In this document: piece by piece, positions 1,658-52,768 of the stretch | Layout: each line of letters begins with the position of its first letter | Numbering within the stretch: the first letter of the stretch is position 1 | DNA from: Amphiscolops sp. MND2022 | Taxonomy: Eukaryota | Direction of reading: 5' to 3' | Assembly (NCBI GenBank): GCA_964187785.1 | Contig: OZ076409.1 | Location: forward strand, 64,232,001-64,296,000 | DNA length: 64,000 nucleotides | Position numbers and translations under genes: made by a program | Notes under the pieces: model-generated | Seen by the model: only the letters and a program-made list of their open reading frames with translations | Told to the model about the DNA's origin: nothing | Database searches by the model: none

Positions 1658-3066
1658 TAGCGATTGGGTACTTTGATGAACTTGATCTTATAATCCGAGC
1701 GAACTGTGGGACTTGATTCCAGACTAGAGTTGATGGTTTTCTTCATAAAGTCCACGGTCCAGGGTAACCGAAAGGGTTGTCCATGGAGGTCCATTGGTGC
1801 GTTGTACCAGTTGACTGGTCCATACTCACGAGGGAGCACTGCGGCTTTGCGCGCGCGGGCACGAATGACGCCCATCATATTCTCCTCAGCTTGAAGCTCA
1901 GTTTTGATGGTCGTGTATGCTTGAGGCATCTCACCGCTCAATGTTTCTTGAATCATGCACTCATATGACATGGGTGGACTTCCCTGCAAGTAGGTATATT
2001 TCGAGACCGTTGCTACTTGAACTGCCATGGAGACGGGTTTGGTGGAATAGCGCAGCACACCCAAAGCTCCAAAGATAGGAATCAGTACCGGGGCGATGAC
2101 AGGGACCAGGTCTTCCACTTCAGCGAGTGTCAAGTCTGCCAATTGCTGTGGCAGTGGAAAGCCTGCATTCTCGCGCGGCAGTTGCGCGTCAGGGTGATGA
2201 AGGGGTTGAGCTTGGTGAACGAATAAACCTGATGCATAGATCAGAGTCGAGTATAACCAGTGTTGCACCGAAGCTCTCACGCGGAATAGGTGGTCGGCAT
2301 AGTTGTGCCCATTCTGCAAGAATAGTAACTCTCCGAAACCAAGCAAGCTGGTCAACTTTCCTTGTGCGATAACCACGTACGTGTAGAATTCTAGAATCCC
2401 TCCGGTAGTGGTCAAACCTACAAGAATGGCTAGGGGACCAGCCACGAATTTAGTGGGGCCCAAGGCCAATGCAAGAGCCAGTACCTCAATGACCGTGGTT
2501 CGCTGCAGCAAGTCGGTGAGTCTTTTCAACTGGTCATTCGTCAGACAAAATTCGGCGGCAATTACATCCAAATGCCAGCCTAAGCCAAAACTTGTTAGCA
2601 GCGCCGGAAAGGACGCAGACAATCCTCTGGCTGCAATTTCCAAGGTAACGGTGGCCAATCGGTCCTGATACCAGTCACCATACGTGACCTCACGCGCCTG
2701 GACCAGTTCGTCGAGGGTAACGGCTTCTTGCTCTACCAGGTGCCTCACACCCAGTGGCATTTTAATAATTTCAGTATTGTTGGCAAACTGGAGCTGAGGA
2801 ATCGTTCGCTCGATCTCGCGATTGAGTGGCCATCTGCCGATTTGATCCCAAACTGCAGCTAGATCCGCCTTAATTGTATTTGGGTGGGCTTCGCACACCA
2901 ACCAGTTGTACCGGCGCATGTTCTCGCGCTCTTTGAGTGTGGCCTCTGGACGAGTCCGATTGCCATTCTCATCGAAAGTTAGCGTGCCTAGACGCATTCC
3001 ATGATCGTAGTAGACTGCATCGTCCCAAGTGAGCTGTGCATTGCCTCCCTTTTCCACTGGCTGCAA
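1654..3066 (-). pseudogene. N-terminally truncated duplicate of E1 accessory ORF2 (C-terminal ~470 aa)
   Basis: Near-identical to the C-terminal part of 4010-6529 and cut at the duplication breakpoint 3116. Confidence 0.85.
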
Positions 3067-3296
3067 TAAGCGTGAGATCGCTGCCAGGTATGCGTGTGCT
3101 GACAGTGCGGCGGGGCAGGCAGTGAAAACATTTGATTTACTAACTATTAACTAAAATTGCACCGAAATTAATGCAGCACCAAGGTAAGGCAAAAATGTTT
3201 ATCATGAGTTTGTAGCAGGAATACGGCAAAAGAAGGCCTAGCTTCATTTGGGTTTGTGTGAGCCCTCGGGCTCACCTACGTATTGGCAGAGGTGCA

Positions 3297-4013
3297 TCAT
3301 TGGGCAGCAGACCTGTTCCTGCTACGAGGAGAAGTTTCCTTAGGGGGTGAGGCATCGCTCGTGGATACGCGTCTGGTAGGCGCCTCGGTGTCGATAGTTA
3401 ATTGTCCAATGGGGTCAGCTAGTGCCGCATTGGTTGTAAGCTCTGCTGTGTGCTCACCGGAAGGACTAGGGGCTACAGGCATAGCCGTCTCAACTGTAAC
3501 CTCATCTTCCAAGGATGCAGCTTCCACGGTGAGGGTTTGCTCCAAGGACATGGTAATAACAGGGGCAGCGGTGCTTTGAGATGGTGCTGGAGCATAGCAC
3601 TGAGCACGCTCCTCTTCAGCGCGATGGTGAGCTGCTAGAGCTACGAGCTTTGAAATCCATCCGCTTTGCTTCCAAAGCGCACACGCCTTCTTCCATATTT
3701 CGAAATTCGTCACTTCTAAGTGGAGACATTCGTCATCCAACTCGGCGCGCATTTCTGCGCCCAGCACTTGATTCACAATATCCAATAACGTCAGTGGCAT
3801 ATCTCCCGACATTGTCATACGGCCTTGCGGACGCCAGACCGGCTCATACTGTATCGGGGCCATCCGGCGGTAAAGATTGCGGTCACACACCTGCGCAGCG
3901 ACGCTAATCCATTGTGGCACATTCGCACAGTCTGTGTGGCGAAGCTGGTGATTCAAAAGCTCCTGGCCGCGCGCGATTGGGCAGGCACGGGGATACCCAC
4001 GGGCTCTTTTCAA
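3297..4013 (-). CDS. E1 accessory ORF3 (238 aa, unknown function)
   Basis: Long ORF overlapping the ORF2 stop by 4 nt. It may be a frameshifted continuation of ORF2. Confidence 0.6.
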   Translation of the reverse strand: MKRARGYPRACPIARGQELLNHQLRHTDCANVPQWISVAAQVCDRNLYRRMAPIQYEPVWRPQGRMTMSGDMPLTLLDIVNQVLGAEMRAELDDECLHLEVTNFEIWKKACALWKQSGWISKLVALAAHHRAEEERAQCYAPAPSQSTAAPVITMSLEQTLTVEAASLEDEVTVETAMPVAPSPSGEHTAELTTNAALADPIGQLTIDTEAPTRRVSTSDASPPKETSPRSRNRSAAQ

Positions 4014-7000
4014 TAGCGATTGGGTACTTTGATGAACTTGATCTTATAATCCGAGCGAACTGTGGGACTTGATTCCAGACTAGAGTTGATGGTTTTCTTT
4101 ATAAAGTCCACGGTCCAGGGTAACCGAAAGGGTTGTCCATGGAGGTCCATTGGTGCGTTGTACCAGTTGACTGGTCCATACTCACGAGGGAGCACTGCGG
4201 CTTTGCGCGCGCGGGCACGAATGACGCCCATCATATTCTCCTCAGCTTGAAGCTCAGTTTTGATGGTCGTGTATGCTTGAGGCATCTCACCGCTCAATGT
4301 TTCTTGAATCATGCACTCATATGACATGGGTGGACTTCCCTGCAAGTAGGTATATTTCGAGACCGTTGCTACTTGAACTGCCATGGAGACGGGTTTGGTG
4401 GAATAGCGCAGCACACCCAAAGCTCCAAAGATAGGAATCAGTACCGGGGCGATGACAGGGACCAGGTCTTCCACTTCAGCGAGTGTCAAGTCTGCCAATT
4501 GCTGTGGCAGTGGAAAGCCTGCATTCTCGCGCGGCAGTTGCGCGTCAGGGTGATGAAGGGGTTGAGCTTGGTGAACGAATAAACCTGATGCATAGATCAG
4601 AGTCGAGTATAACCAGTGTTGCACCGAAGCTCTCACGCGGAATAGGTGGTCGGCATAGTTGTGCCCATTCTGCAAGAATAGTAACTCTCCGAAACCAAGC
4701 AAGCTGGTCAACTTTCCTTGTGCGATAACCAGGTACGTGTAGAATTCTAGAATCCCTCCGGTAGTGGTCAAACCTACAAGAATGGCTAGGGGACCAGCCA
4801 CGAATTTAGTGGGGCCCAAGGCCAATGCAAGAGCCAGTACCTCAATGACCGTGGTTCGCTGCAGCAAGTCGGTGAGTCTTTTCAACTGGTCATTCGTCAG
4901 ACAAAATTCGGCGGCAATTACATCCAAATGCCAGCCTAAGCCAAAACTTGTTAGCAGCGCCGGAAAGGACGCACACAATCCTCTGGCTGCAATTTCCATG
5001 GTAACGGTGGCCAATCGGTCCTGATACCAGTCACCATACGTGACCTCAGGCGCCTGGACCAGTTCGTCGAGGTTAACGGCTTCTTGCTCTACCAGGTGCC
5101 TCACACCCAGTGGCATTTTTATAATTTCAGTATTGTTGGCAAACTGGAGCTGAGGAATCGTTCGCTCGATCTCGCGATTGAGTGGCCATCTGCCGATTTG
5201 ATCCCAAACTGCAGCTAGATCCGCCTTAATTGTATTTGGGTGAACTTCGCACACCAACCAGTTGTACCGGCGCATGTTCTCGCGCTCTTTGAGTGTGGCC
5301 TCTGGACGAGTCCGATTGCCATTCTCATCGAAAGTTAGCGTGCCTAGAAGCATTCCATGATCGTAGTAGAGTGCATCGTCCCAAGTGAGCTGTGCATTGC
5401 CTCCCTTTTCCACTGGCTGCAATAAGCGTGAGATCGCTGCAAGGTATGCGTGTGCTGACAGTGCGGCGGGGCGCAAGTCCGTCTTGCTGACGCGCAAGTT
5501 GGGCGCGCACAAGTAAAACTCGATGTTACGAGCTTGGCACACCTCACTCAGCATATATACGAATTGTTGGAACATCCCTCCCCAGTACAGCATGCCTGGA
5601 GGAGAAACAAACAGGGATGACATTCCCAACTGAGTGCGGAGCTTCTCTGCCGTACGCTCCATCGCGGTGGCATTTTGGTGCAACAATCTCGATACTTCAT
5701 TTCTGGCGGCGTCACGGGTGGTCATCTCGCGTAGTAAACGCGGCAGGTCTTGCAACTGGCCTTCACAAGCCATATGGTCCATTAAATTGGACAAAATAAT
5801 CCTCCGCGGTGGTGGCTCCTTTTGAGATCCTTCCAACTCCGGAGCGAACATGGCAATGGCTACTTCGGCCATCTCTGGCAGTCGCGACAACAGCATGGTT
5901 ACTACCAGGACATCCGGAGCCAAGTTGTCATACGGAAGGTCGCATGGGACCGTTGAATCCATCATCACGCAGTAGGTATTTTTTGAGATAGGTTGGATGG
6001 CTCTGAGACTTTGAGGATACTGTCCGTGGGTTTCCCAGGCTTCGCCTTGTTGCAATGAGTATCTGGCGGTGCATTGCGCATGCAAGTCGTTCATCATGGG
6101 TCGCAAATAGTTGTCATGAGCAGTAGTCAATCTCTGAACTACACGTTGCTCCCATGCTGGCTCACCTTTGTCGGCGTCAAAGGCTCGCAAGGTCCTCGAC
6201 ACATGAGCTACAATGGATAGCTTCTTCAGCTGAGCTTGGTCAGCGCTCGAGGGTGGAACCCGCCGTCGATCACGAAATTGCCGCTCATCTAGCCTTGGGG
6301 CAACCTGCCTCATGCGATTGGCATCGCGCGTTACCACAGTTCCTGCAACGTTATCAGACTGGGGAAAATAAGCCGGTGGTGTTGGTTTCGTAGATCTGGA
6401 AGCTGAGGAGGTCACTGATGTGCTCGAGCGTTCGGCACTGGCCGAAGAACTAGGACTTGGAGCATATCGTTCTATGGCTTCGTTCATTGCCATTTGGGGC
6501 GTGGGTACGCCACGGTAGCCCACTTTCACGTGCTCTTTTATAACTACTGAACGCAGCGCATGCTGGCGTTTATCCGGGGGAGGGCGACTTGTTGGACTAT
6601 CGGTGGTACTGACTGTTGGTGATTGCCCATGCGGCGAGGTTCGTTAACGACCCAGCTCTTCATCCGAGACGGGTGACAATCACGAGATAGGTGAGGGGGC
6701 TCTAGTCCTAGTAGTGCTAGGGCCAGGTGTATTTGAACTGGTGCCTGGACCAGGTGCTTCGAGTAGGTTTTGTAGGCCTGGAAATTGCTTGGACATAGTC
6801 TTGACGAACTCCCTTGATTCTGGATATTTCGCCACTGCTTGGAGGGGTTGAATGACTGCCTGCTCACTTAGCGTTCTATGTGACATGTCTGGTGCAGTGA
6901 TACTGCTGCGAGCAGATGAAGGTGCAGAAGACTGCACTGATTGCACTCTAGCGATAGACCTTGGAGAGGAGTCCTCGGGCTCCTTCTGGGGTGTTGTGCT

Positions 7001-34037: not shown

Positions 34038-35276
34038 AGTGGTCAAGCAATGGTCGGCTTGAAGCTGTGGTTTCAAAGTGACTTGCTCAATGTCATAAAG
34101 GCCTGACTGCTCACCGTTACTCTTTGTTTTGCTTTTCTGCACAAAATGAATAATTTTTCTGTCATTGACCATACCACTCAGCTAGGGATGAAGGACTTGC
34201 TCAAGGCCCAACGATGATTAGTTGGGAGAGATTCGTACCTGATACCGTCCCAGTACAGGCCGAATGATCTAACCACTTTGTAATATTCCATCCTGTTTGC
34301 CTCATTCGGAAAATCAAATTTGAAACAAAGTTGTAAGAAAAAAGGTTTGTAAGGCTGAAAAAGTGTATTGAAAGGCTAAAAACAATTGCACACATTTCAA
34401 TTGTCTGAAAAGGATCAAATTCATACAACAAACAACCGAACCATCAATAAAGTTTCCATTTTGTCTTCCAAAAAACAGCACGCACCTCTAAAATGAAACG
34501 GTTTTCCTGTACCTTAAAAAAAACAAGACAACCAAAACAGTGAATTAGGCTGCAGCTTTTTTCAATTGTGCACTATGTTTCAATTGTTTGATGAATTTAT
34601 GAGAACAACATAAGAAAAACATAATCAAAAAGAAAGTGAAATGAGCCTAAGTTTTACTCTTCATAAAGTCATACTTGTACACTACTTTTCACTGATGCAT
34701 TACCGGTTTGAGTAGCAAATGTTATTGCTAATGCCTTTCAAATAGGTCTTCTTGGATCCGTTATTTTAACAAATACAAGCGGAAAATTATGTGAAGTGCT
34801 GTCGTGAAGTTTCAGAGTCTTGTTAGTCGTTTTTGTTAGACGGTCACATTTTTGTGCAAAGTAATTTTTATGGTATCTGGAAAACTTACCTAACTTTAGA
34901 TAACAAGCTGTTAAGGACACACTACATACAGTTAATAATATTGCAATTAAAATTAATTATCGATCGCCCACCACGATCACGTTTCCTTGAAACAGCACTG
35001 AAGTTGATTGTTAGTTTGCATTTCATAGCTTGATTGAAATTACAAAAATTAAAGAAAAGAACTGAACCTTTATTTGTAAGAAATATGTAACTTCAACTGC
35101 ATGTAAACAAAGCTAGCATTTACATGGTGGTTTCTTTCAATCTCTAATTTACCCAAAAATTTAGGGAACTGGAGAGACGAATTGAATATTGATGACAATG
35201 GATTTAAAAAAATTCTGTCGATATTAATATTACAGTCGAGTCCGGATAATTTCACCCGGAGATTGTCTGGGGCACC

Positions 35277-36953
35277 TGTCGCAGGCTCCCGCCTGCGATG
35301 GGAACTGGTATCAGGTTGCCCCTGATACCTGCAACAATTTACCCGTCCCCCCAGGAGTGCTGCCGATCTAAGTCGCAAAGACCATCAGTACTTGAAAACA
35401 ATTATTCATTGGACGATTTGAACTCATTATTAGCTCAAACTTTTATCTATGTACAATTACGGACCTTAAGTCCATTCTCCCTAGTAAGACTTATAATCGG
35501 AGTTAGACTCTCAATGTAGTATATTTGTGTGAAATCTAGTAATTTTGCTATCTTATGGATCTATCATATTCAATGCATGTATTTAGTCATGTAAACCAGT
35601 AGTCAATTATAGTGAATGTAATCAATTGCGTGCAATTAGAATTAACAAAGCAGCTATATAGTTGGAAGGAATCGCGTTCGAATTGTCCCCCGCGTTGGTC
35701 AGTTCGGACGCGTTGTCCGCCAAATTATTCAACCAATCAGCTGTGAGCACTAGTGCTTTCTTTCACTCATTCGCCGCCATTCACGTCTACACGTATTAGT
35801 GTGGACCACCAGTCCAAGTGCTATACTCTATTTACATTAGCATGTTATATAAACAAATAGAATTCTCTGGAGCGGTGTTATGTTGCTAATTAGACATAAA
35901 AGGCGTACCGCCATTTAGCCCCCCCCACATTAGCTTTCACTCCTTTTCGTAGAATTAAGCTATTTTTAGAGTGATGTCACTGTTCTAATAATATCCCCAA
36001 GGTGATTTTGCCCGCATTTGATGCTATTAATAGACCAAACCCTAGAAAACGTCACTATGACGTCAGGTCCAGTAATCTAGTTTTATCCCTGTGATGATCA
36101 TAATTTTGCGTGTCATGAGGCGCTGATTATAAATAGTGGGGACCCGAGGTTTCCAGGAACACAATCGACAATCTGTTTGACCGCGAATACACACACAATC
36201 CATTCCAAGTGAACTCTCAACTCTATTCAATCTTAACGCATAGTCAATTTGCCATTTCTTGCTACTCTACTTAACTATCAATCATTCACTTGTTTCCTCA
36301 TTCCTTTAATATACTGTAGAAGCTCTAATATACTCTTAGTTGAGCTTAAATCTCTTCAATGCCTTCTACCAGAAAACAAAGAGCTAAAGAGAGACGCTCT
36401 AGGCAAATAGACATAATGTCTGATGCTGAGAACTTAGATGTAATGCTTGGATCATATCCGAGAAATGACTTAGAAAATGATTTTGATAGAAACGATGAAA
36501 TGGACCTAGAGTCTAATAGGACAAGAGCTGACTTAGCACAAAATAGTGAGGATTTTAGGTCACTTTTGAACTCCAACAGTAGAGAGAACAGTGAATCAAC
36601 TGTTGAAACTATGAGGCTTGTTAACTCTGAGGTCACTAAGAAAATCGACGAACTGAGGAGAGAACTTAATTCTCAGTTAGTAGATGCTATAAACTCAGCG
36701 ATCACAGAAAAGGTATTGCCTGATATCAGAAATATGGTGACCGGCCAAAGCTCATTGTTTCGGGAAGAAGTGGACCACAGGTCCAGAGGACTAAACAGGA
36801 CCTCCGAAGAATTAGGTAGTAGAAACGCTTGGAAAAGCAATTCAAAGCCTACTTTGGCTTCCAGTAGTCGACGAGACTACTTCAGGAGAAACTCAGATGT
36901 TTCTCAGTTCAGTGATGATGATCACGAAGAAATGATGACCAATAATCATGACA
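35277..36953 (+). repeat. E2 5' LTR (1677 bp)
   Basis: TGTCGCAGG..CATGACA, near-identical to 49870-51548. Confidence 0.97.
36058..36134 (+). promoter_or_regulatory. E2 LTR promoter: CRE-like TGACGTCA and TATA box
   Basis: TGACGTCA at 36058-36065 and TATAAAT at 36128-36134. The same pair occurs in the E3 LTR. Confidence 0.55.
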
Positions 36954-38072
36954 TGGTGACAGGAGCCAAACCTACCCCTCGTACGGTTCCTGAATTCCTT
37001 ACTGGACGGCCCATGCATTCCCGAGAAGAAACACACAATTCCAATTCCCCACGAAATCAATCCTCAGAAAATGTCCCTCCCGTCCAAGAGACAAACGTCA
37101 ACGATGGCTCAGACCCCATTAGGCGTCTCGCAGATGTGCTGGTTGGAATGAACAGCAAATCATCAGCGCAGACACTGATGGTAAGACCCGTCACCACCAC
37201 CACACTGACGTTTGATGGCAAATCGGAGAAAATTGAACTCTTCGAAGATCTTTTCCATACTATGGTAAAGATGCAACCCGAAATGACGGAAACCATGAAA
37301 ATCAACCACTTCCACTCTCTGTTGAGGAAAAACGCCCTACAAACTTTCCGCAACATCAGTACCGCTAATAGGCAGACTCTGGAAGATGTACTGGCAGTCT
37401 TTCGACGCAAGTACGTCAAACCAGAATCTCAGGCAACAGCCAAACACAAATGGCACAAACTAGTGTTTGACCCAAATACTATGAAACTGCCTGATTTCCT
37501 TGAAGAATTAAATCAGGGTGCGGAAAAGGCATTTGGAGAACACGCCCAGGCCATGATGGACAGCCTATTGTACGCCAAATTGCCTCCAAAACTCAAACGG
37601 TCTGTCAATATGGCTAGGCTTGAAAATGCGTCGTATGAGGAAATAGTCACTCATCTAGAACGCGAGCTTGAACTTAACGGACTTGAGGGAGGTGACGACA
37701 TTCCAGTACCTACAATGTCCACTGCCCCCACAGCAACACGACCGGGAACTGGCCTCCTTTCATCGGGTATTGACCCCAATATCACTTTAATTATTGCAAA
37801 AAACCCGGCCATGTCAAGGAAGACTGCCGAAAACTCAAACGAAACGAGGAACAAAGGCGCAACGAAGGGCAGGATACTAAAAAGAATATCCCAAATGTCC
37901 AACTTGCGGCAAAACAAATCACCCGGCGGAACGTTGTTGGAAAGGCGCCGGAGCCCACCTCAAGCCCAAAAACCTCAAACTGGAGGACGCCAAACAGGAC
38001 GAAGCGCCCCCCGGACAAAATGAGACCAAGGACAAACAGTTCACCTCTATATTAAAAAACTCAAAAAACTAG
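36359..38072 (+). CDS. gag: E2 gag, starting inside the 5' LTR
   Basis: 554-aa ORF from ATG 36359 with capsid-like LTFDGKSEKIELFEDLF..LRKNALQTF. Two zinc knuckles (NYCKKPGHVKEDC, CPTCGKTNHPAERC) appear after 1-nt frameshifts near 37790 and 37880. Confidence 0.9.
36954..36967 (+). other. E2 primer-binding site (tRNA not assigned)
   Basis: TGGTGACAGGAGCC immediately after the LTR CA. The identical 14-mer follows the E3 LTR. Confidence 0.85.
38063..38069 (+). promoter_or_regulatory. Putative -1 ribosomal frameshift heptamer A AAA AAC
   Basis: Directly before the gag TAG, with pol in the -1 frame. The same arrangement occurs in E3 at 53895-53901. Confidence 0.7.
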
Positions 38073-41000
38073 ATTTGCCACGACTCCAATTTAATGAAAA
38101 ACTTAGAGTTAGACAATATATAATCTCTGACGCTGCTAATGTATTTTATATTGAATATTATTCTTCTTTAAAGGGAACCTCATCGGCTGACTGGCAGCAG
38201 CAAATGAGAATTACCCCTACTCAATTTTGCACTTCGGACCACAGGTCCGACAGACTTGACTTGACTACGGACAATATCCGACCTATTCCATCAATCCCTG
38301 ACTATAACCCCTATTACATCGATCCGGACTATGGCATTGCCCCTACTGGGATGTACAAATCTACAACCAACACGAATTGCATTTCTATGCCAACTTTAAC
38401 AAACAACAAGCCGAAATCGAACCTGACTGTCCTGTGGCAGACGGGGCTCTCAACAATATTCTGACTACGGCTCTGGTAGACCAGTGGCAATTGGTACCCA
38501 ATTCATTTGCTCTACCACCACCACAGGAGCCCGAAACAGAATTCTACACATTTGGACCACAAGTCTCTTTGGCGTTAGCCGTCGAGGCACGATTTGTCAA
38601 CACTCTGGTCACCAGAAATGGCGAACCAGATTATGTACCGCTGACAACCAACCTTGGACTGAAATATAAACGGCGTATGCTCTACTTTCCAATGGATTTT
38701 GGCGAACTTACATTAGATGGCCTTGTAGACACGGGAGCCCTATCTAGCGCGATCCCTGAAGCTGATCTACGTAAAATCCGATTATTAGCCCCTCAGTCAA
38801 TTGTCAAAGAGGGCCCAGCACCCAACTTCCAAATAATGGTAGCCAATGGGCAGCTGGAAACTCCAAAGAGCACCGTCGAACTGAAATTTGAGGTCGGCGA
38901 TATAGAATTTCACGAAATTTTTATTGTAATGGAGAAACTCACAAGCCCTTTGATTGGTCTTTCGTTCTTGCAACGAAACAACACCATATTGGACATGAGA
39001 CAGGGAGTCCTAAATTTCCCGTTCTTCTCCATGCAATTAAAGACGGCGGATCACAAGTACACCAACGTCATGGAGCCTATCTGTACGCAGGAGGACATAA
39101 TCATCCCTCCCAACGATAGACACCTAGCCACGTTAACTTCGCAGATGTACGACGATACCACCGTTACTGGTATATTACAACCAAGCAACGCCCTCACTGA
39201 GGATGGGGACATCATCTTTTGTGCGGCATTGGTCACATTGACCTCAGGTCAAGTTGAAATTCATCTGAATAACTTCACTGACCACCCTTATACTCTTAAG
39301 AGAGGTTCGCATATCGCTAATTTCTCTGTCATGACCCCAGGACAGATGAAGTACGTCAAACCTGTTGACCCGGTGACCACATGGCACCTTTTGCAGGACA
39401 ATCCTGAAAATGCTGCCTTTTATGTTAGCAGCTTGATTAAATCTTCAAAACCAGAAGATTTTCGTGAGAACTATTGGTTTCCTACCCCGGAAGACCCTGG
39501 GGATCCACAACACCATACGCCTATACAAAAGCGTATTCTGACTGAGCTCTTGACTTTACAAGAGCTAGAGAAGCTTAATCCTCAGGATGACCCTGAGTCC
39601 AGACGACAATTCTTGACCAACTTTGATTGGACTGACTCTATGCTGCAACCAGACGAAATTGTTCGCATTGAAAACTTGCTAGTCGAATTTCACGATATAT
39701 TCGCTAGACACCGATTCGACATAGGCATGAACGAGGATTTCAAGGTCAAATTGACCCCAAAAGATGATTCCCCGGCCTATAGTCAAAGTCTACCAACGCC
39801 TATTAACCTCAAGGAAGACATCCTTGTGGAATTGGCACTGTTACAACGATATGGGATTATAACAACTCTCCCATTTTCCAAATACGCTAGCCCAATCTTT
39901 GCCCAAAAGAAACCTAACGGCAAATTGAGACTGCAAGTCGATCTCCGTAAGATTAACAACCTAATTTCGGATGATTATATCAACAATAATCACCCCGTCA
40001 GTACACTGACCGATGCTGCCCAACATATGGCTGGCAAAAGGCTATTTTGCAAGTTGGACTGCTCGCAAGCATACCACTGCTTGCAAATGGCGGACCAACG
40101 GTCGATTGAAATGTTGGCGTTCAATTTCGCCAGCAGGACATTTGCTTACCGCAGGTTGGCACAGGGACTCAGCCGTGCTTTATCAGCCTTTTCATGCTTT
40201 ATGCGAGAATATCTCGACAAAGTAATCAAAGCCGACCAATGTGCACAATATGTCGACGATATTGGCATTGCTGCCAATGATTCCGAACAGCTCATAAAGA
40301 ACCTGCGGGCCACTTTCCAATGCATCCGCGAGGCAGGATTGAAGCTCACAATGCACAAATGTCATTTTGGTGCGACAGAAATTGACTTTTTGGGTCGAAC
40401 GATCACGCCAGTCGGCGTACGTCCACAGCGACCACGAGTCCAAAATTTCCTTGAAAATACGAAATTTCCGAAATCAAAGAAAGCATTGCAGCGATACCTG
40501 GGATTTCTTAACTATTATCGCAACTATATTCCCAGGCTTTCAGAAAAATTAACACCGTTCTTTAAATTATTAAAGAATGACGAAAAAGTCCTGGTAACAC
40601 CGGACCTATTGGAGAAATTTACCGATATCAACAAAGCACTTGACCGCTGTTGTGAATTAGCACTTAAACAGCCACTACCGAATAAACAATTAGCTCTCAT
40701 GACGGACGCCAGCTTTATGGCCGCTGGATACGCAGTCCTAATTGAAGACGATCCGCAAGAGAAATACACTTCAACGAGAAAAGCGTTTGCTCCGGTAGCC
40801 TACGGGTCAAAGACCTTTAGTCCCGCACAATTGAAAATGTCCATTTATGCAAAAGAATTCTTAGCCATATTCTTTGCGTTCAAGGAATTTGGACATATCT
40901 TTTGGGGGACGCCAAAACCGGTAATTATACTGACCGATAACAAATCCGTCACGCGTTTTTTTCAAACAAAGATAATACCACCAACGTTGTGGAACGCGTG

Positions 41001-43106
41001 TGATTACGTCATTCAATTCAACTTCACAATAGCACACATTCCCGGTAAAAACAACACAGCTGCTGATTATTTATCGCGTTTAGAAGTTTCACCAAAAGAG
41101 AAATTAATCCTTCGCATTAGAGAAGATATTCCCACTACGCCAATTGAACTTCATGCCCAATCCGCGGGAATTAACGAAGAAGAACAAATCTTCTATACTG
41201 ACGATGATGATGAGACGGAAGAACAAATCTGGCAAAGGAAGAAAGAATCACGAGACAACCCTTCCAACCAATTGCCGGATATTTCTTTTGAAAAATTTAC
41301 CACTCATCACAGCAATTACCAAGAATTATCCATTTGTCAAAAATTAGCCAATATCAACACTGTGGCCATAGAGCAAAACAACGACGTCATTCTACAACAA
41401 CCTAAACTCAAAATCCAAAAAGAAGAATATTCTGAAACGATCTTGATACAAGACACAAGATATCAGCACTAGCTACGTCAGTTAGACCGGATGTCCATCC
41501 AAGATGAAATCATCACCAGACAGTATTATGACGAAACAGGAAACGTCAAATACAATCAAGTGCTCTTACCAAAACATCTGGTAAATGAATTGCTCGAATC
41601 CCTCCACGGAAAGGCAAATAGACACCGGGCATTGCAAAAATGTTACAAGAAATTCGTTCCAAATATTATTACCCCGGAATAGCGAAACTAGTCCGCAAGA
41701 GGGTTAATGGATGTGAAATTTGCATCAAAGATAAAAGAATTCAAAACGAGTTAATAACTCCTGAGCTCCTTAATTTGCCAGAATGGACCTTGGGTCCAGA
41801 AGACGCAATGCAAATAGACCTCTTGCCGAACCTCCCGCCGAGCGGAGGCTACGAAAATATTATTACTGCCATGGACGTTTTTTCGCGTTACCTTTTTGCT
41901 TACCCAGTTACTGACGCCTCAGCTGCAAACACTGCCAAGGTCATTATCGACATCATGACCAAGCACACTTATTTGCCGACGACTTTGATTACCGATAAAG
42001 GATCAGCCTTCACATCAAAGTTAGTAGCTGAAATAGCGCAAATTCTGGGCATTCAAATTAAATGTGCGACGACAAAACACCCTCAGACCATAGGGAAACT
42101 GGAAAAAACACATGCCAGTCTCAAGACTAATCTCAAAATGGCCTCAGGGGAGTACAGACGTCAGTGGCACAAGTACTTGCCGTTAGCAGTCCTAAATTAC
42201 AACACGTCTTACCACTCGACGTTGGGCTGTGAGCCTTCAAGGATATTTCATGGCCGTATACCATACAACATCCTAGACCACAATTTGGGGCTTAATCCAA
42301 ACCCGCAGGTCCTTCCGACCACGGACTTTGCTGAGGAAGTTCAACGCAGATCGCAGATTTTGGTCGATGCAACAAAGAAAAACATCATGCAGTCTTATTT
42401 GAAGTACAAAGACTATTACGACCGAAAGGCCAAAGCCGCACCTTTGAAAATCAATGATTATTGCTTTATTTTGCAACCTATAGCTGACCATCAAGGATCC
42501 AAAATCCCTTTTCGAGAATTTCGTTGGATCGACCCTTACATTATTGAGAAAGTTTTACCCAACGACAATTATATAGTGCGCAAGCTCAGTTCCAACAAGA
42601 CGCAAATTTTACATAGAATACGTCTTCGAAAATATGAGCCTAATACTGACTTGCAGGACGATCGCCCTGAAGGGAATTTGCAGCCTGACGATGAAATTGT
42701 CGTTCCTCAAGACGATCTCTACGTAATCACGTGGGAAACGAACTTTGGAGACTTGCAGTCTGGTCGACGTAATGCGACCTACGAGCAATCAACCGAACGA
42801 GCAGAAAATACGAACGATGCAGCTGCCGATTTTGAGCAGCCAGACCAAATACTGACCGATGTGGATCTGAGGTCCACTAGACGTGATGCGACGGAGGAAA
42901 CTCTTCCTGAGCGAACTGCAACCGATTCTGAAGATGAAACAATTCCCGGTGATGAAACATCATCAGGGGGGAGCGATACTATCGTGCCCGAAGTATCAAA
43001 AAGCGAAAATGACGAAAGGATTCAAGACAATGAAAGCCCTAGGGGAGGGAAATATAACCTTCGCCCAAATCCTACCCCCAATTACTCAGGAGAATACAGA
43101 TACTAG
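38063..43106 (+). CDS. pol: E2 pol: PR, dUTPase-like spacer, RT, RNase H, integrase (frameshifts near 38400 and 41630)
   Basis: LVDTGALSS; KLDCSQAY and QYVDDIGI; LMTDASF, KEFLA and TDNKS; QIDLL..TDKGSAF..GKLEKTH; KIPFREFRWIDPY. Confidence 0.96.
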
Positions 43107-43300
43107 TCAGAACATTCAATTGTTACATCCCATCTTTTCTCTTTGCCCATGAGGACATGTATTTTTACTGGGACCGCTCTGACTTTATTTTTTTATGCTG
43201 CAATTAATAGACTGTCGACAAAGCGACTTAGAGGAAGAACAAAGAAATAAATACAAATGCAGTTTATAGTTTAAAGTTTACATATGTACTGTGCGTACAA

Positions 43301-46300
43301 TCAGTCTCTGCTGCTACATTGGCGCAGGCTCTTAGCAGACTGGGCCACTTCGGAATCCGACAAAAGGTGCGTCGGACGCACATTCTTCTTCGAGTACTGT
43401 AAGGTACTGGGGGACTGCTGGACGATAACGGAACTGGAAGTACCCGCCTTGCTGGCTTTGCTCTGAAGTCTACGATCAGGATCCAACTTCGACAGAATCT
43501 CCGTCCTCCCGAAATTATCCAAACCCGACCATGGGTCATACGTGTCGCCAAGCGCGGTGCGACCGAAAGTGGACTCCATTTCGAGGAATTCGGAGATTGA
43601 GGCATCGCTTGTCACTGACTCGACTGAATTGGCCACTTGGCTGAAGTATGATTGTACCGGCAGTACAATGTCCACTAGCTTGCTGGTGGGATCCTCCGTG
43701 TTGACTGAGCTAAATCTGACTGTTGGAAGACTTCGAAAGGGCTCGTCAATGCACAGGCAGGCCAACCTGAAGCAACTCAGCAGCAAAGGACGTGTGGGCA
43801 AGGTCGTTTGCTCCATTAGGAAGTCGATTGTGTCCTTGATCAATAAAGTTGGCTGATCAAACTCCGCGAATTTGACGCGCAGTTCGTCGACGAAGGACAA
43901 GTACTCTTCCTGCGCTGGAGCCTCTTGTTCCTGGGAGAAATACCCACGGAGACGGAAGATGGTAAATAGCTGACTGAAACACTTTGTGGCCAATGAGAGA
44001 GGCAGCTTTAGGAGGATTTCCAAGTCAAAGCTAGCTAAGCCTTGGGCAATGTTCGTGGTAAAGTTAAAGTGACCACGCGTCTCCTTGAATAAGTGCGTCA
44101 CATAACTTCTCGCCAAACGTCCAAACTCCTCCTTGGCTTTCTCCTTCAATTCGTCGATTGACGTCTTCTCTCCCTTCTGTTCGTGCTGGTCAATCTCAGC
44201 TTTCAGCTTGCAAGCTTGGTGAAGCTTCACTCCAAACTTAGTCCTGTTGAGGAACACTGTGACTTTGAGGGCAGGGGCAGTTGTCGTGTCCAGATCCAGA
44301 ATGCTCGCTATGTCCTCCTCGACAGGCAAAGCAGTAGGAAGAACAACGCGCTTGCCCAACTTGCGGAGGTAGAGACAAAGCTGACGAAAAGAGTAGAAGG
44401 CCCTGTCACGTCGGCCACTGAGACTGAGGGAGAAATTGGTGGTATCTGAAACAGTAAACAAGTCATGAGGACGACCTACGCCATGAAGACCTACGGTCCA
44501 CAGAAGCAACGCCAACTAAAAGGGATCCAAGTTGGAACAGTCAAGCTTAGATTGGAAATTTAAAGAAGTCTCAGCGCAGTTCAAGTCAAATGATACCTAT
44601 AGGGTTACTGCGAAGCAATGTGAAGACTAAAGCACAAGAAAACTTAAAGTACTAACAGTCACGGACGAGCTTTCCAAAGAACTCTAGTTTGCAAGGGAAG
44701 AAATCATCGTGAATGATGGAGCGCTCAAAGTTCTGTGGCTGAAAGAAAACAGATGTTATTGAGATTTGCTCTACCAGTGACCACGAGGACAGCAGTCGCA
44801 ACTCGACCTACCTGATTACGGACTCCTTGCATTTGCTGCTGTGGTGAATGGTCAGAGAGATAGTTGATAACAGCCTTCCAGTTAGCCATCAACTCCTGGC
44901 ACAATTTCGGGACTGTCGACACGTCGAGCTTGCAAGTCTTTATGTCCTAAACGAAAACCCTATTTTACACCAAAACAAGTTTTATGCAATACACGGAGAA
45001 TAGACCGAGAGTCTTACGTTTGTCAATTCAGGGGTAAAGAGGGTCCATTCCATCTCGAGGCTTCCACTCAAGCAAACAACCAGATATTGCAGTACCGAGA
45101 AGAAGTCGATGCGCCCGAACACGGAGAAACTGTCCTTGTGCATCAACTTCTTGATTGCAATCTCGTCGAAGATGGTCGGACGCTGTACCCCATGCTTGGT
45201 GAGTGGTGACCGATCTAATAACTGCACTAGACCATGTGTAGCGCCGGAGCAACACACCAGATCAGCTTCAGTGGAGATCGCAGCTAGGAGGGTAGTCACA
45301 AGGTTTACCTCAGCCGACGTCCGTCCACATGTCCTACCGGTCCGTCGTAGGTAGACACGACACAATCTATCACCCTTCCAGAACCTGACGTGGAGCAGAA
45401 GGAAAACCCCTTGAGGTTCGAACTCCACAGCAAATTGTCCAGAGGTCATGATATCGTTGCCGATATTTGGGACGATCTGAGTGAACAGATGATGGAACAA
45501 CACCTTAAAAACAACTTTGGATTAGACCATACGAACACAACTGTCAACCCAGGCCTACAGTTCAAAACCTGAACAACAACTCTTGGAGTCCAGTCAATTC
45601 TATACAATACGGTGATGGGACTAGAAGTCATTTAGACATGAAGGGACTACTTACCGAGAGTCTTGTCGTGCTCCAATCGATGTCGCTGAAAATGGCCTGG
45701 TGGTTCACGGCCGCGCCGACTTGCTGCCAGAGACTTCGAAGGACCTGAATATCTCCAGACAGAGGCAAGAAACGTCCTAGTACGGAGATCTGCATTTTGG
45801 CGCGATTCTGAGGGGAAGGAGCCATGTAGTCTGCACCTGCCATCGCCTCGTCGTAGAGCGGCAACTTCTCCCCGATGTCCACCAGCTCGCTATTGATGAA
45901 AAGCGGCAACTCCAGTTGGAGCTGATAGTTAGAGAGCACTTGGCCGTTTCGTCCTCTGACTTGATATCTACGCCGTTTGGTGAGGGGATCTTCAATGGTG
46001 AGGTACTCGTACCTCCAGCGCTGGTCTTTGCGCAAGTGTCGTTCAGTTGCGAAATGTCGCAAGATTTCCTTCGGGCCTTTAGCTCGTATCGACACGTTGC
46101 ACTTGCAAATCTGGCAGTAGATCTTATGCTTATTCCACTGGGGTCGACTGGCCCCGACACGAACGTTCTGGTCCACGGCATGGACTCAAAGTGCTTCTCC
46201 TTCATGACATGGTCTCGGCCCATCCGTCTTCTAGGTCGCGCTGGACCTCGGGCTCTTGTTCGGGCTGAAGTGTGCTTCCTGGAGTGGCGTTGTTCAGTGG

Positions 46301-47677
46301 TGGCCCCATGTCTGATAGTAGCTAGAGTTTGCATTCCAGGACTAAAGGCTACGGGTGACTGAGGATCGGACTCGAAGTCCACTTGCCTCCTGTTACCAGC
46401 GGTTGGAGGGGCAGGCATCGCCACACTTGACTGGAAGTCGGGTTGGGACTCCGCCTCACTAGTCATCCCTGGACTAGCGTCGCCTCTTCGAGTGTCATAG
46501 GTGATGACAGAATCGCTACCAATATCTGTGTCAGTATCTGGACCTGACGTCGAGGCAGCACGCCTTCGAGGAGTTGCTTTCACGGGACTGCTCAAATTCA
46601 GTCTGCTTGCCCGCTCTACCACGCTGTTCAGCATCTCAAAGGATGCTCGGGCGCTCTCGTCTGCCACAATCCTGAGGATGCTGGTAATTTGATCTTGATT
46701 GAGAGCAATGACAGGATGCCCAGGATCAAGGCAGATAGGGTTTACTTCAGTGAAGCACTGTTTGATTATGACCCTGCTGGTACCTGACAGGGAGGAGGTC
46801 CTGTACGAGGTGGTAAATCAGGAATGCTAGAATCATGGCTGGATTCATCGCGGCAAGGAATATCACGGACCTTTGTGGGGCTATAAAGTGCTTGGCCCAA
46901 AGTAGACCGAACCATGGATCCGGTGTCGGTCTCCATCCCAAAGCAGGAATATTCATCGGTGTGGTACCGGTAGTCCATTGGTCCACGGTTGACTTGTGGC
47001 TCACCAGAGCCAGAGCCTTCAGCGCCTCGGCCTTCTCCAGGCGCAACTAGTTCACGAGAGCCAGACTGTACTTGGGCAGGTGTCTGTTCTGTAAACCCGA
47101 CGTTCTCAAAGTGGACTTGCCTTTCTGCACTGGTACCATCAGCTCCGAAGTCAGGTTTGGATGTGCTGAGGGCTTGCTCATCTATTTCGCGAAAGGTCAA
47201 AGGACTCTGTTCCACGGTAGCAGCATTGTTTGGTTCTACTGATGAATCAGTCTTGTCCAGGAAAACAACTATAGGGATGCTTTCTGACGGCTGGACTTCA
47301 GGGATCATCTCGTTCAGTGCGGGAGTTACAGCAACTAACTCGCTCACACTCTGCTTTACTTCAGCAGGAATCTCATCTGCGGGACTAGCAGGAATCTCAT
47401 CTGCGGGACCAGCAGGATCACGTTCAGCGCTCTCCAGCAATTCAGCTGTGCGTTTGATGTACGCATCACAGCTCTCCGAATCAGTGTTAGACGACAGTTC
47501 GATTACAGACCTCTTGTCTGCTGCGACTTCTGTGACTTCAGGCTCTGGAGCCTGTTCAAATGATGGCAGATCTACTTCCATCTCTTTAGCAACATTTTGC
47601 TGCGGTTGGCCGTCCATTTCTTTGCCTAAACGGAAAGAAATAAATTTTCGCGATCCACTTCCGCTAAAGAAATCCAT
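43301..47677 (-). CDS. E2 antisense 5-exon gene; BED-like zinc finger plus probable inactive hAT-transposase fold
   Basis: Exons 47677-45655 (two 1-nt frameshifts), 45503-45018, 44946-44812, 44738-44657 and 44445-43301. The GT-AG introns give a continuous frame, and all four positions are shared with E3. Confidence 0.85.
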
Positions 47678-49145
47678 CTTATCGCGTTTGAAAGACTTTC
47701 GAAAGCAAGTTCATTATTTGTTCATACCTATGATTGAATATTTCACGATGGAGGAAGTGAAAATTAGTCAATGGGAAGCCCTGATCAAGCTCAAAATTGA
47801 CAAAATTATCTAAAAGAACCAACCTGATGTTTATCCAACTGGAAGACAGAATTCGAAAAGCGTGATGTAGCTGACTGGAGGTATATGGCCTGCCTGAACT
47901 GTGAATTTGGCTCGGGGAAGAAGCAGGTGAAGGAAAATTGTCAGCTGAAACGAACTGTTGTGAGGGCACCCAATGTCAATTAGATCACTAGTCCAATTAA
48001 AGGAGATTAAAGAAATGGACAGACTGAGTTGAGAGAGCTGCCGAGGAGTTGATTCTAGAGATGTAGTATGCACCTGCACTGTGCCAAGGATAGGAGATAA
48101 ATCTGCAAGATGGGGAATTCTGAGCTGGGGATGTATGCTCAACTTGTTCAGCTGGTCGATCAAAGGACGATTAGACCAGTGGTCCAAGAAACGAAATTAC
48201 AAGCAAATATTGCTAAAGGGACACTCCAGCAAGAGTATTCCAAGGAAACTTGACGATCTAATCTGGAACTGTGGAATAGAATTAGAGTGACGAATTCAAA
48301 ATGTAACAATGATGTAGTAATCAATTCAAAAGATTGCAATGAAGACTGTGGAAATTAGAAGACTGGTTTACTATGCTTTATGACAATTCGACTACATGTA
48401 TTACTTACCTATTCCTACTTCTTACCATCATACTTGACTGTCAAGACAGATAATTACTTGATCAATTCTAGCATTAAATTTATCTACATCAAAGGACGTC
48501 GTGGCTACATGCAATTAACCAACCATTATTATTGTTATTATCTCTTTTAACTACCTATGCATCATGACCTTTGGTGTTACGGAAACTGCCAGTGATGTAC
48601 ACTTTTGGTCATTTCTTTCACACTTCCTTGTTCCTTTAGTTAGAGTTACCATCGTTACCATTATTTGATTTCATTAATATGATCTATTTTATTATTTTCA
48701 TTCAAAATTCATTCAGAATTTTCAGTTATTTATCAAAGCGCTCTGATTGGTCAGTTGGTATCAGCTAGCCGCGGAGACCGCCGGTCTTTGATGACACTCC
48801 ACTGATGTTGATGAGCGGTGGTAAACAATCTCACCGCTCGTTAACACCTCTTCAGCAGTTACTATAACCACTTGAGACTGGACTCAAGGGCTTGTCAACT
48901 TTACGAGCCGCTCAATATCAAAATGATATTAAGAAAGAAATCTACTAAATAAGGAAATGTTTTGAATATGAGGGAAGCGGCGGGGAAATTTTCCCTAACT
49001 GAATTTCCCGCGAATTTTCAACCCTATGACCTAAGGTCGGCTGGTCTATCGCAGCCATTCTTCTGAATCTCAACTTACAAATCAGCAGCTCACACTTATT
49101 CTCAAAATAGCTAAGAAAATCTTGCTGAAAAGATTTCGATCAGAA

Positions 49146-49964
49146 ATGTCTCTGCAATTTGCCGTTGACGACTTGATTAGCCCTTTGGTCAGTTTGTCTT
49201 ACCTGTCCTCAGAGGAGGAAGACATGGAAGTGGATGATCCACAACCAGCCGTAGACGAGGAGGGGTACGACAGCGACATTGAAGTCCTGGCTTGCTTCAG
49301 CGAGTCACATTCTGTGAAGCCTATGGGTGTGGCTGGACGCACAATGACAACTGAAATCTACATCGAGGATGACGATCTAACACTGGTTGAAGAACTCTAC
49401 GGGCGAGCATGCAAGTTGGACTCAGAGCCAACCGATGATCTAGTCAACTTAGTACTGGGCAATGGACCCTCCAAGCATAGTATGATCCCTGTAGGCGAGA
49501 AACCGATAGCCAGGTGTGCTCAAATGCAACCAATTCCCGACACCCCACAGTCTCCACCTGCCCATGAGAGAGGCCCCACCTCCACCTTCGACAACACCCA
49601 GTGGGCTAACTTTCAAACTGCCTACGAGCCCGAGCATGCCCACATAACGGGGATAGCTGTAAGCGCAAGCGGTGTCTGCGGAACCTCAAATTTCGTGGCC
49701 AGAGGAGACTGCGTGGTGTGTGGGAAAGACTTTGGGTCTATCAAAGAGGAAGTGACATTAGACTACCTGGAGCGGACTCACTTATCCGGCGAACCTTATC
49801 TAACACGAGTAAGGAGGAGGAATGAGGCAGGCATGGCCGCCGGCTCATTTCTTCTCGTACCGGGGGGAGTGTCGCAGGCTCCCGCCTGCGATGGGAACTG
49901 GTATCAGGTTGCCCCTGATACCTGCAACAATTTACCCGTCCCCCCAGGAGTGCTGCCGATCTAA
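49146..49964 (+). CDS. E2 3' accessory ORF (272 aa from ATG), acidic with CxxC motif, reading through the PPT into the 3' LTR
   Basis: Intact ORF with CVVCGKDF. The last ~31 codons lie in the LTR, and the motif SQAxACDGNxY is conserved at the start of the E3 LTR. Confidence 0.75.
   Translation: MSLQFAVDDLISPLVSLSYLSSEEEDMEVDDPQPAVDEEGYDSDIEVLACFSESHSVKPMGVAGRTMTTEIYIEDDDLTLVEELYGRACKLDSEPTDDLVNLVLGNGPSKHSMIPVGEKPIARCAQMQPIPDTPQSPPAHERGPTSTFDNTQWANFQTAYEPEHAHITGIAVSASGVCGTSNFVARGDCVVCGKDFGSIKEEVTLDYLERTHLSGEPYLTRVRRRNEAGMAAGSFLLVPGGVSQAPACDGNWYQVAPDTCNNLPVPPGVLPI
49862..49869 (+). other. E2 polypurine tract
   Basis: GGGGGGAG directly before the 3' LTR TG. Confidence 0.85.
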
Positions 49965-51548
49965 GTCGCAAAGACCATCAGTACTTGAAAACAATTATTC
50001 ATTGGGCGATTTGAACTCATTATTAGCTCAAACTTTTATCTATGTACAATTACGGACCTTAAGTCCATTCTCCCTAGTAAGACTTATAATCGGAGTTAGA
50101 CTCTCAATGTAGTATATTTGTGTGAAATCTAGTAATTTTGCTATCTTATGGATCTATCATATTCAATGCATGTATTTAGTCATGTAAACCAGTAGTCAAT
50201 TATAGTGAATGTAATCAATTGCGTGCAATTAGAATTAACAAAGCAGCTATATAGTTGGAAGGAATCGCGTTCGAATTGTCCCCCGCGTTGGTCAGTTCGG
50301 ACGCGTTGTCCGCCAAATTATTCAACCAATCAGCTGTGAGCACTAGTGCTTTCTTTCACTCATTCGCCGCCATTCACGTCTACACGTATTAGTGTGGACC
50401 ACCAGTCCAAGTGCTATACTCTATTTACATTAGCATGTTATATAAACAAATAGAATTCTCTGGAGCGGTGTTATGTTGCTAATTAGACATAAAAGGCGTA
50501 CCGCCATTTAGCCCCCCCCACATTAGCTTTCACTCCTTTTCGTAGAATTAAGCTATTTTTAGAGTGATGTCACTGTTCTAATAATATCCCCAAGGTGATT
50601 TTGCCCGCATTTGATGCTATTAATAGACCAAACCCTAGAAAACGTCACTATGACGTCAGGTCCAGTAATCTAATTTTATCCCTGTGATGATCATAATTTT
50701 GCGTGTCATGAGGCGCTGATTATAAATAGTGGGGACCCGAGGTTTCCAGGAACACAATCGACAATCTGTTTGACCGCGAATATACACACACAATCCATTC
50801 CAAGTGAACTCTCAACTCTATTCAATCTTGACGCATAGTCAATTTGCCATTTCTTGCTACTCTACTTAACTATCAATCATTCACTTGTTTCCTCATTCCT
50901 TTAATATACTGTAGAAGCTCTAATATACTCTTAGTTGAGCTTAAATCTCTTCAATGCCTTCTACCAGAAAACAAAGAGCTAAAGAGAGACGCTCTAGGCA
51001 AATAGACATAATGTCTGATGCTGAGAACTTAGATGTAATGCTTGGATCATATCCGAGAAATGACTTAGAAAATGATTTTGATAGAAACGATGAAATGGAC
51101 CTAGAGTCTAATAGGACAAGAGCTGACTTAGCACAAAATAGTGAGGATTTTAGGTCACTTTTGAACTCCAACAGTAGAGAGAACAGTGAATCAACTGTTG
51201 AAACTATGAGGCTTGTTAACTCTGAGGTCACTAAGAAAATCGACGAACTGAGGAGAGAACTTAATTCTCAGTTAGTAGATGCTATAAACTCAGCGATCAC
51301 AGAAAAGGTATTGCCTGATATCAGAAATATGGTGACCGGCCAAAACTCAGTGTTTCGGGAAGAAGTGGACCACAGGTCCAGAGGACTAAACAGGACCTCC
51401 GAAGAATTAGGTAGTAGAAACGCTTGGAAAAGCAATTCAAAGCCTACTTTGGCTTCCAGTAGTCGACGAGACTACTTCAGGAGAAACTCAGATGTTTCTC
51501 AGTTCAGTGATGATGATCACGAAGAAATGATGACCAATAATCATGACA
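49870..51548 (+). repeat. E2 3' LTR (1679 bp), including a second copy of the Gag N-terminal ORF (50954-51616)
   Basis: Near-identical to the 5' LTR and followed by the TSD GCACC. Confidence 0.97.
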
Positions 51549-51556
51549 GCACCGGC

Positions 51557-52768
51557 TGTCCCAGGCGGCCGCCTGCGATGGGAATGTCTACGCTATCCCA
51601 CAAAATGCAATCATAACAAACACAAAACTGTCAAGCTTGCCTCTTCTCTAAGAAGAAGGTTCTTGCAAACCAAAACTATGAAAACTGTTGAGTCATGTAA
51701 CTTCTGTATAATGCCATTCATTGCCTCATCGAGACTGTAAAATACAAGTAAAATGGTTAATAATCATTAGTACTCAGTGTCATTTATGATGTCCTTATGA
51801 CATCAGTGGACAATACCAATACTTTCATTAGTGCAGTCTATATTGACTAATACTGCTCCCATGCGTGCATGAAAATAACGTTTACATTACGTACGCATGT
51901 GCGAAGTGAAGAAATAGCGATAACCCTAAATCAGAGCTATGTAAACACGGTGTTACTATATATGGATAGATGACCTGACGTCACATCCACTTTGATGATG
52001 CTATAAATAGAATTACTTGTAGTGTGTCATGCAAGGTGCTATTTTTAGAAGGTGACTTGACCTAAATTTGAGAGTCATGTAACTATGAGTATATATGGTA
52101 TGATCCCTGAGAGGGGACACAATCCTATTAGATTGCATTAAAAGTCACAACCAGATCTTGAGTATCAATTCAATTTACCAGTTATCATGTTTTCCTCTGA
52201 GAATGCCATCGACGAGGAGCAAAAAGGCAAAAACGAGAAGGTTGAGAGAAGCAGACATAATGTCGGATCTAGAGGACATGGATGTTATGCTGGGTTGCGG
52301 TGAGTATAATCCTTTTGAAAGAGAGATAGATCAAATAACCGGTTTCTCAAACACGCTAGATAGCGAAGAATCAAGGGAAAATATCTCAGCAAGAGGATGC
52401 TCTTCCCAAGAGAATGAAATCAGAAACATGCCTGAAAACAGGGATGATAATAATTTAGCGAGACATATAGACGTTCTAACGAACGAGGTTAATCTAACAA
52501 TTTCGAGAGAAATGGGTAGTTTGTTGAATGTAGTTAATTCCCAAATAGAGATCGCCATTAGCATGGCTTTATCTGAAAGGGTAAATCCCCAAATTCAAAA
52601 CGTCATTGAGAATGTGCTGGCTAGACAGTCTGAGCGTGTCGCGACAATGACCAGAAGACCTCACAACTCAGGTATTTGATGCGCAGAACTGTGACGGAGA
52701 TAAAGCGAGTAACAGGGATTTTTAATCTCATCAAAATTTAACAGAACTCCATGAGGAGAGTCCTTACA
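51557..52768 (+). repeat. E3 5' LTR (inferred, about 1.2 kb)
   Basis: Left end inferred by similarity to the E2 LTR start; right end is TTACA before TGGTGACAGGAGCC. TGACGTCA at 51976 and TATAAAT at 52002. No second copy in the window. Confidence 0.75.

Follow-up and report, generated by a model that had tools for sequence, protein, structure and literature searches.

Does the gag gene of a retrotransposon in the assembly of Amphiscolops sp. MND2022 begin inside the long terminal repeat (LTR), so that the primer binding site (PBS) is read as codons, and is the LTR-encoded part a genuine piece of the protein? The question was raised by an element, E2, in a 64,000-nt stretch of contig OZ076409.1 (the window). 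The evidence set out below makes it very probable that E2 belongs to a Ty3/gypsy lineage in which the tRNA-Leu PBS lies 100 to 215 codons inside gag and the N-terminal domain of Gag is encoded by the LTR, duplicated with the LTR, and likely translated with the capsid as one protein.

E2 is a 16.3-kb Ty3/gypsy retrotransposon (35277-51548) with one LTR at each end (Table 1). The two LTRs are 99.6% identical by self-BLAST and are bordered on both sides by the 5-bp target site duplication (TSD) GCACC. E2 combines TG...CA LTRs and a TSD with a PBS, a polypurine tract (PPT) and the order protease, RT, RNase H, integrase, an order common to Ty3/gypsy, BEL/Pao and retroviruses; its integrase follows RNase H, unlike the Ty1/copia arrangement, in which integrase precedes RT. 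PDB sequence matches of the RT were to foamy-virus and Ty3 RT, a likeness to Ty3 by similarity scores. The tRNA 3' pattern matching the PBS occurs 865 times genome-wide, and ARAGORN called tRNA-Leu(cag) in two of eight loci checked. Included in the 865 matches is a tandem array of tRNA-Leu-like 3' ends with a spacing of ~296 bp (G000:C8:35587799-35639033).

The E2 copy itself is damaged, with its gag frame disrupted in the knuckle region (about 37,780-37,890) and its pol also broken. The Foldseek matches of the capsid, to PNMA2 and retroviral capsids, were weak, and all fell short of E <= 0.001. An A AAA AAC heptamer (38063-38072) sits immediately 5' of the gag stop, within the overlap with the pol frame, and we take it to be a likely -1 frameshift site. 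Between protease and RT, a dUTPase match (39079-39333) is weak (E 0.0016) and falls below the curated cut-off. Only 8 bp (51549-51557) separate the end of E2 from the 5' LTR of the next element, E3, and the open reading frame (ORF) in the 3' LTR of E2 continues into the start of the E3 LTR. A different retroelement occupies 1-20130 on the minus strand; it contains an 827-aa ORF that has no Pfam match and a 2.36-kb stretch duplicated in tandem (758-3116 and 3114-5472).

Table 1. Features of E2 and of the adjoining E3 LTR, in window coordinates
Feature	Position	Strand	Details and basis
Left TSD, GCACC	35272..35276	+	Second copy at 51549-51553
5' LTR of E2	35277..36953	+	1,677 bp, TGTC...GACA; self-BLAST
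TATA-like box	36128..36135	+	TCATG ahead, short G+C inverted repeat after; predicted core promoter
Predicted ATG-free 5' leader	36158..36358	+	
LTR-encoded N-terminal part of Gag	36359..36952	+	198 codons, comprising a basic head, a conserved motif (residues 17-31), a predicted long helix and a disordered linker
Predicted long alpha-helix	36581..36748	+	Residues 75-130; AlphaFold2; most constrained stretch of the LTR segment
Internal gag	36953..38072	+	Linker, capsid, two zinc knuckles; DUF1759 match, weak Foldseek matches
PBS, TGGTGACAGGAG	36954..36965	+	12-nt complement of the tRNA-Leu(CAG) 3' end plus CCA; codons of MVTG
pol, in pieces	38677..43106	+	Protease, weak dUTPase-like stretch, RT, RNase H, integrase (Ty3/gypsy order); Pfam, PDB sequence matches
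Antisense accessory ORF region	43301..47710	-	No Pfam match; conserved in related families
Sense accessory ORF	49146..49964	+	272 aa, CxxC motif; runs through the PPT and ends 31 codons inside the 3' LTR
PPT, GGGGGGAG	49862..49869	+	Inside the sense accessory ORF, also coding
3' LTR of E2	49870..51548	+	Self-BLAST
Second Gag N-terminal frame, 3' LTR of E2	50954..51616	+	198 codons plus 22 flank codons
5' LTR of E3	51557..52768	+	1,212 bp; ATG 52203; stop 52677-52679

As the original prediction had it, the gag ATG of E2 (36359) lies 595 nt upstream of the LTR end, so that the LTR supplies 198 codons and one further base. That base, the last of the LTR, is the A of a second ATG, the PBS is read as MVTGA in the gag frame, and the first stop comes at codon 555. 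An error in the LTR boundary was ruled out by the TSDs and the partner LTRs. The same reading had been proposed for E3, and there the ATG at 52203 and the CA/TGG junction at 52768 proved to be in place, but the frame stops at codon 159 and the 566 nt between them leave it out of phase. E3 is a decayed copy whose partner LTR matches only up to 52688. Its intact relatives L042, L045 and L048 do read through, with 188 codons in the LTR, and the element E3_C10 has 190.

The layout is widespread in this genome. The junction CATGGTGACAGGAG has 7,527 exact occurrences, compared with one for the reversed control. For a sample chosen regardless of protein similarity, we took the first 30 junctions on contig C1. 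At least 100 open codons lay upstream in the frame of the junction ATG at 24 of these 30, compared with 0/30 and 0/30 in the other two frames; two of the remaining six were matches to the N-terminal profile with stops, and four were closed on both sides. Intact copies carry an LTR-encoded part of 103 to 215 codons (about 100 to 215), in most cases with a basic head at its start, and all 30 of the 5' copies in which both junction and start were located have 187-199 LTR codons. In a capsid tree of 24 rows, every clade had the LTR-encoded part.

Matches in a genome-wide protein search with the LTR segment were mostly paired, 8-16 kb apart, with one member in a long frame and the other in a frame of ~200-300 codons, the pattern that 5' and 3' LTRs would produce. 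Among 11 elements fetched, eight had a partner LTR that terminates in CA, and their 5' copy was followed by the same PBS; in two others (one of them E3) the partner match stops early, and in the last the LTR start is unclear. For divergent elements, a partner LTR lay 12-17 kb downstream in nine of ten, spanned the frame and ended at the junction. Across the lineage, LTRs measure 1.1-2.5 kb and elements 15-19 kb. An MVTG-type motif is internal in 217 of 240 database relatives, mostly at least 80 residues from the start. Four relatives on ENA contigs of 1-5 kb (P0243, P0245, P0255 and P0275) show ~40% identity and carry DMVTG 68-118 residues from the start, and the layout may thus extend to other hosts, to judge from such short contigs. 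A metagenome scan returned one contig of 1.2 kb with capsid only (L138). Within the genome, a young, many-copy 9.8-kb family (L063/L064; G000:C1:93238400-93249200) is without RT, RNase H and integrase and has kept gag, with 95% in the capsid. In the LTR frame its codon 14 is TGA and its next Met is codon 20, so the first residues appear dispensable, at least there.

If the LTR segment is part of a functional protein, it should be constrained at the protein level, a check that the original prediction had called for. In 18 diverged pairs its dN/dS was 0.07-0.38, indicating frame-specific purifying selection. In one set, 20 of 30 copies passed the intact-frame filter and ten were compared pairwise (45 pairs): the nine pairs with dS of 0.7-1.5 gave 0.08-0.38 for the LTR part, with all bootstrap intervals below 1; three close pairs gave 0.25-0.37, with one interval reaching 1.06; and 33 were saturated. 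Of the nine pairs with dS of 0.7-1.5, six remained once those with a copy damaged in internal gag were left out, and in these six internal gag had 0.05-0.08. In position-sampled pairs, the LTR part had a dN/dS of 0.07-0.25 in nine of nine. Substitutions in the segment fall mostly at third codon positions, and pN/pS was below 0.5 only in the gag frame and its antisense mirror in seven of seven pairs. The coding part is also the longest stretch of the LTR that can be aligned between families. Constraint is uneven along it: dN/dS is lowest over the first 31 codons and the helix region (0.02-0.09, with dS partly near saturation) and reaches 0.43-0.45, a weak constraint, in the distal third (the last 50-70 codons). 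In six clean family pairs, dS in the LTR-encoded part was 1.2 to 3.9 times that of internal gag, and it falls over the last 50-70 codons ahead of the LTR end. These results support an N-terminal part of Gag that is encoded in the LTR and, as far as comparison of sequences can tell, real and constrained as protein.

The LTR also carries a likely core promoter ahead of gag. All six LTRs examined have the same TATA-like layout, 142-242 nt upstream of the gag ATG, while most other U3 sequence cannot be aligned between families. Several families have a short G+C-rich inverted repeat after the TATA-like box, with sequences that differ between them; that of E2 (36137-36160) is predicted to fold as a hairpin. 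The predicted transcription start lies near 36157-36165 (~36160), ~30 nt past the TATA-like box. Between there and gag, ATGs are scarce: the leaders of the six LTRs hold four, compared with 33 in equal lengths upstream. At 20 of the 30 position-sampled loci (the heptad test below likewise used 20 of the 30), the first 100 nt upstream of the start contained no ATG in 20/20 cases, compared with 30-64 in every 100-nt bin beyond; by construction this count leaves out in-frame ATGs, though not out-of-frame ones. Such an ATG-poor leader fits scanning from ~36160 to the LTR ATG. We found no conserved AATAAA or ATTAAA position in the LTRs examined that would place the R/U5 border. Frame, constraint and leader strongly imply that gag is likely translated from the LTR ATG across the PBS, as one protein with the capsid.

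What the LTR-encoded part looks like is less sharply defined. AlphaFold2 gave pLDDT values of 81-85 for residues 91-120 and disorder around the junction, in a model that is poor overall (mean pLDDT 50.5). The segment had been described as a coiled-coil domain, a description that the heptad test did not bear out for the 180-215-codon type to which E2 belongs: 9 of 20 N-termini beat their shuffles (at most 18 of 300), and these were mostly of short types. A model of self-association of the helix (residues 70-135, three copies) scored 0.13 against a mark of 0.32, which speaks neither for nor against association. Other gypsy-type Gags have N-terminal coiled coils, and by analogy the helix here likely serves Gag assembly or targeting.

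Two alternatives bear on how the frame is read. One is that it is untranslated, being a remnant or else an incidental consequence of either base composition or some cis-acting RNA element. The LTR-encoded part has no Pfam match above the curated cut-off and no informative ESM Atlas match (best 0.75), which would suit such a reading. We nevertheless consider it highly improbable in view of the third-position bias, the frame-specific dN/dS far below 1 in independent clades, and the depletion of ATGs upstream of the LTR start codon; a chance or untranslated frame was rejected on its frame-specific openness (24/30 versus 0 and 0) together with the constraint. The other alternative accepts translation and adds a second product, so that a long Gag would start at the LTR ATG and a short one, lacking the LTR-encoded domain, at the junction ATG of an internal transcript. 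This ATG is in frame in all intact copies, has a purine at -3 in 24/30 (mild support), and is followed in the E2-type clade by a conserved PEFLTGR motif; Ty1 offers a parallel in p22, which the accessible part of PMC4599808 describes as made from an alternative transcript. Yet an ATG arises at any CA/TGG junction and MVTG is dictated by the tRNA match, while a TGA at the junction in one of the other two frames leaves only two frames possible. The commonest base at -3, G (17/30), mirrors the TGTC start of the LTR as part of the terminal inverted repeat, and families with T at -3 exist. From its gag start to the junction E2 has 18 ATGs, so a short Gag would depend on a separate transcript, such as Ty1 has for p22, and TATAAA is present within the coding part of only three of nine LTRs. 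We therefore find the proposed short Gag without support and regard two Gag forms as unlikely; the junction ATG is most likely a by-product of CA+TGG, and the single long Gag is the reading we retain.

A further alternative concerns the frame as it recurs in 3' and solo LTRs, which had been predicted to carry an ORF of ~200 aa. As sequence this ORF exists, with 220 aa in the 3' LTR of E2, but it gave no sign of selection after insertion. Among 29 top-scoring LTR copies with a located end, 27 had no stop in the LTR part; open frames are no surprise in these copies, which are young and were chosen for their protein similarity. A check of solo LTRs, also suggested at the outset, found the frame open in three of five TSD-flagged cases, one of the three being doubtful in that its flank is shared with another copy. 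These open frames, and the presence of the same predicted promoter and leader in each LTR copy, might suggest that the frame is also expressed alone, as a peptide of ~200 residues that would bind full-length Gag and keep copy number down, much like Ty1 p22 but with the other half of Gag; a Gag fragment is known in Ty1 as a trans-dominant inhibitor (PMC4599808, in the portion available). The LTR would then be a self-contained gene for a Gag domain, and the free domain, rising with copy number, a dose-dependent brake on particle assembly: every insertion has two copies of the N-terminal domain to one capsid, and a solo LTR keeps promoter, leader and domain. Against expression alone, the LTRs of single insertions differ by 40 nonsynonymous and four synonymous changes (13 pairs), a nonsynonymous share of 0.91 against 0.80 expected under neutrality (p = 0.09) and hence no fewer than neutral, and the C-terminal read-through tails vary with the flank at each insertion site. 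The 40:4 ratio is compatible with neutrality, and selection thus appears to act via transposing lineages and not on resident copies. We consider separate expression of the peptide quite unlikely, and the brake, which we draw by analogy, just as much of a long shot; if it were true, copy-number control would be written into the LTR, which codes at both of its ends. Most likely, the frame copies in 3' and solo LTRs are by-products of LTR duplication.

The second coding end is the LTR start. The frame of the sense accessory ORF is kept across it in 11 of 11 elements compared, extending 28-40 codons inside the LTR, with 260-291 open codons upstream in six elements, 108-143 in three and 51 in two that are deleted. 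Divergent elements keep a frame across the 3' LTR start in seven of nine, two of these being short enough for chance. In seven of seven pairs, pN was well below pS, U3-internal codons included, which points to purifying selection on the ORF. The ORF has no match in Pfam or the ESM Atlas. Judged from the sequence, both LTR ends are coding, with the N-terminus of Gag at one and a conserved sense ORF at the other. Antisense ORFs lie between pol and the sense accessory ORF, head to head with the latter; a CxxC...HxxxxxH pattern at 45631-46185 on the minus strand has a tentative likeness to a BED-type zinc finger.

The data are accommodated by a model in which the ordinary LTR replication cycle duplicates the Gag N-terminus. 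During LTR replication, the RNA from cap to PBS becomes minus-strand strong-stop DNA and appears in both LTRs. For E2, the model puts the transcription start ~30 nt downstream of the TATA-like box (36128) and has ribosomes scan the ATG-free leader as far as 36359. Strong-stop DNA would here be ~800 nt long, and with the PBS so deep inside gag, the N-terminus of Gag would be copied into both LTRs. The linker that joins helix to capsid, disordered and under weak constraint, would hold the PBS and the integrase end and may be able to carry both messages. No sampled clade is without an LTR-encoded Gag part, and since every one has the feature, a shift of the PBS into gag and growth of the frame into the LTR are indistinguishable on this evidence. 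The basic, M-x-T-R-S-like heads resemble, as we take it, ordinary Gag N-termini, which favours the boundary shift.

What is new here is the scale, with a whole helical domain in the LTR; a PBS inside gag is already known from Ty1, which presumably has about a dozen GAG codons in its LTR. The original premise that gag normally starts after the PBS was therefore too general, Ty1 being a known exception: PMC4974528 puts its PBS within the GAG ORF, at RNA nt 94-104. Ty1 and the present elements share a PBS within the gag reading frame and a gag start upstream of it, but here the PBS is ~800 nt from the predicted start, with 103-215 LTR codons, the domain order is that of gypsy, and the primer is tRNA-Leu in place of tRNAiMet. 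Mag elements of Culex, in the accessible text of PMC3286476, have tRNA-Leu or -Ser primers, mostly 5-bp TSDs and LTRs of 119-304 bp. The tRNA-Leu primer and 5-bp TSD found here are features not exclusive to Mag, and the present elements differ from the Culex set in their LTRs of 1.1-2.5 kb and from Mag in their length of 15-19 kb, their accessory ORFs and their coding at both LTR ends. In CRM group A of the plant chromoviruses, the coding region crosses the PPT into the 3' LTR (PMC3059260, as far as its available part goes); the part that crosses is the integrase tail of their polyprotein, unlike the separate accessory ORF of the present elements, in which the opposite LTR end codes as well. 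Plant Grande, RIRE2 and Retand resemble the present elements in arrangement, with additional conserved ORFs of both orientations located between pol and the 3' LTR, and the portion of PMC7264820 available describes no gag start in the LTR for them. The available parts of PMC554778, PMC3601003, PMC10309623 and PMC5408684 contain nothing on gag starts in LTRs. A search of full-text literature returned no description of an LTR encoding a whole Gag domain or coding at both ends; its phrase matching is brittle, and subscription papers, Repbase, GyDB and supplements fell outside its coverage.

LTRs are usually treated as regulatory, and annotation pipelines seek gag only between them. In this lineage, such annotation strips 100-215 residues from Gag, and at 3' and solo LTRs it produces what look like short orphan genes, in their thousands; these protein clusters already include gene calls from ENA that measure about 200-230 aa. 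In one and the same element, the integrase end, the PBS and the PPT are all overlaid on coding sequence. The lineage also lets one ask, in a natural setting, whether a Gag fragment that is copied along with the LTR has a regulatory role or stays silent.
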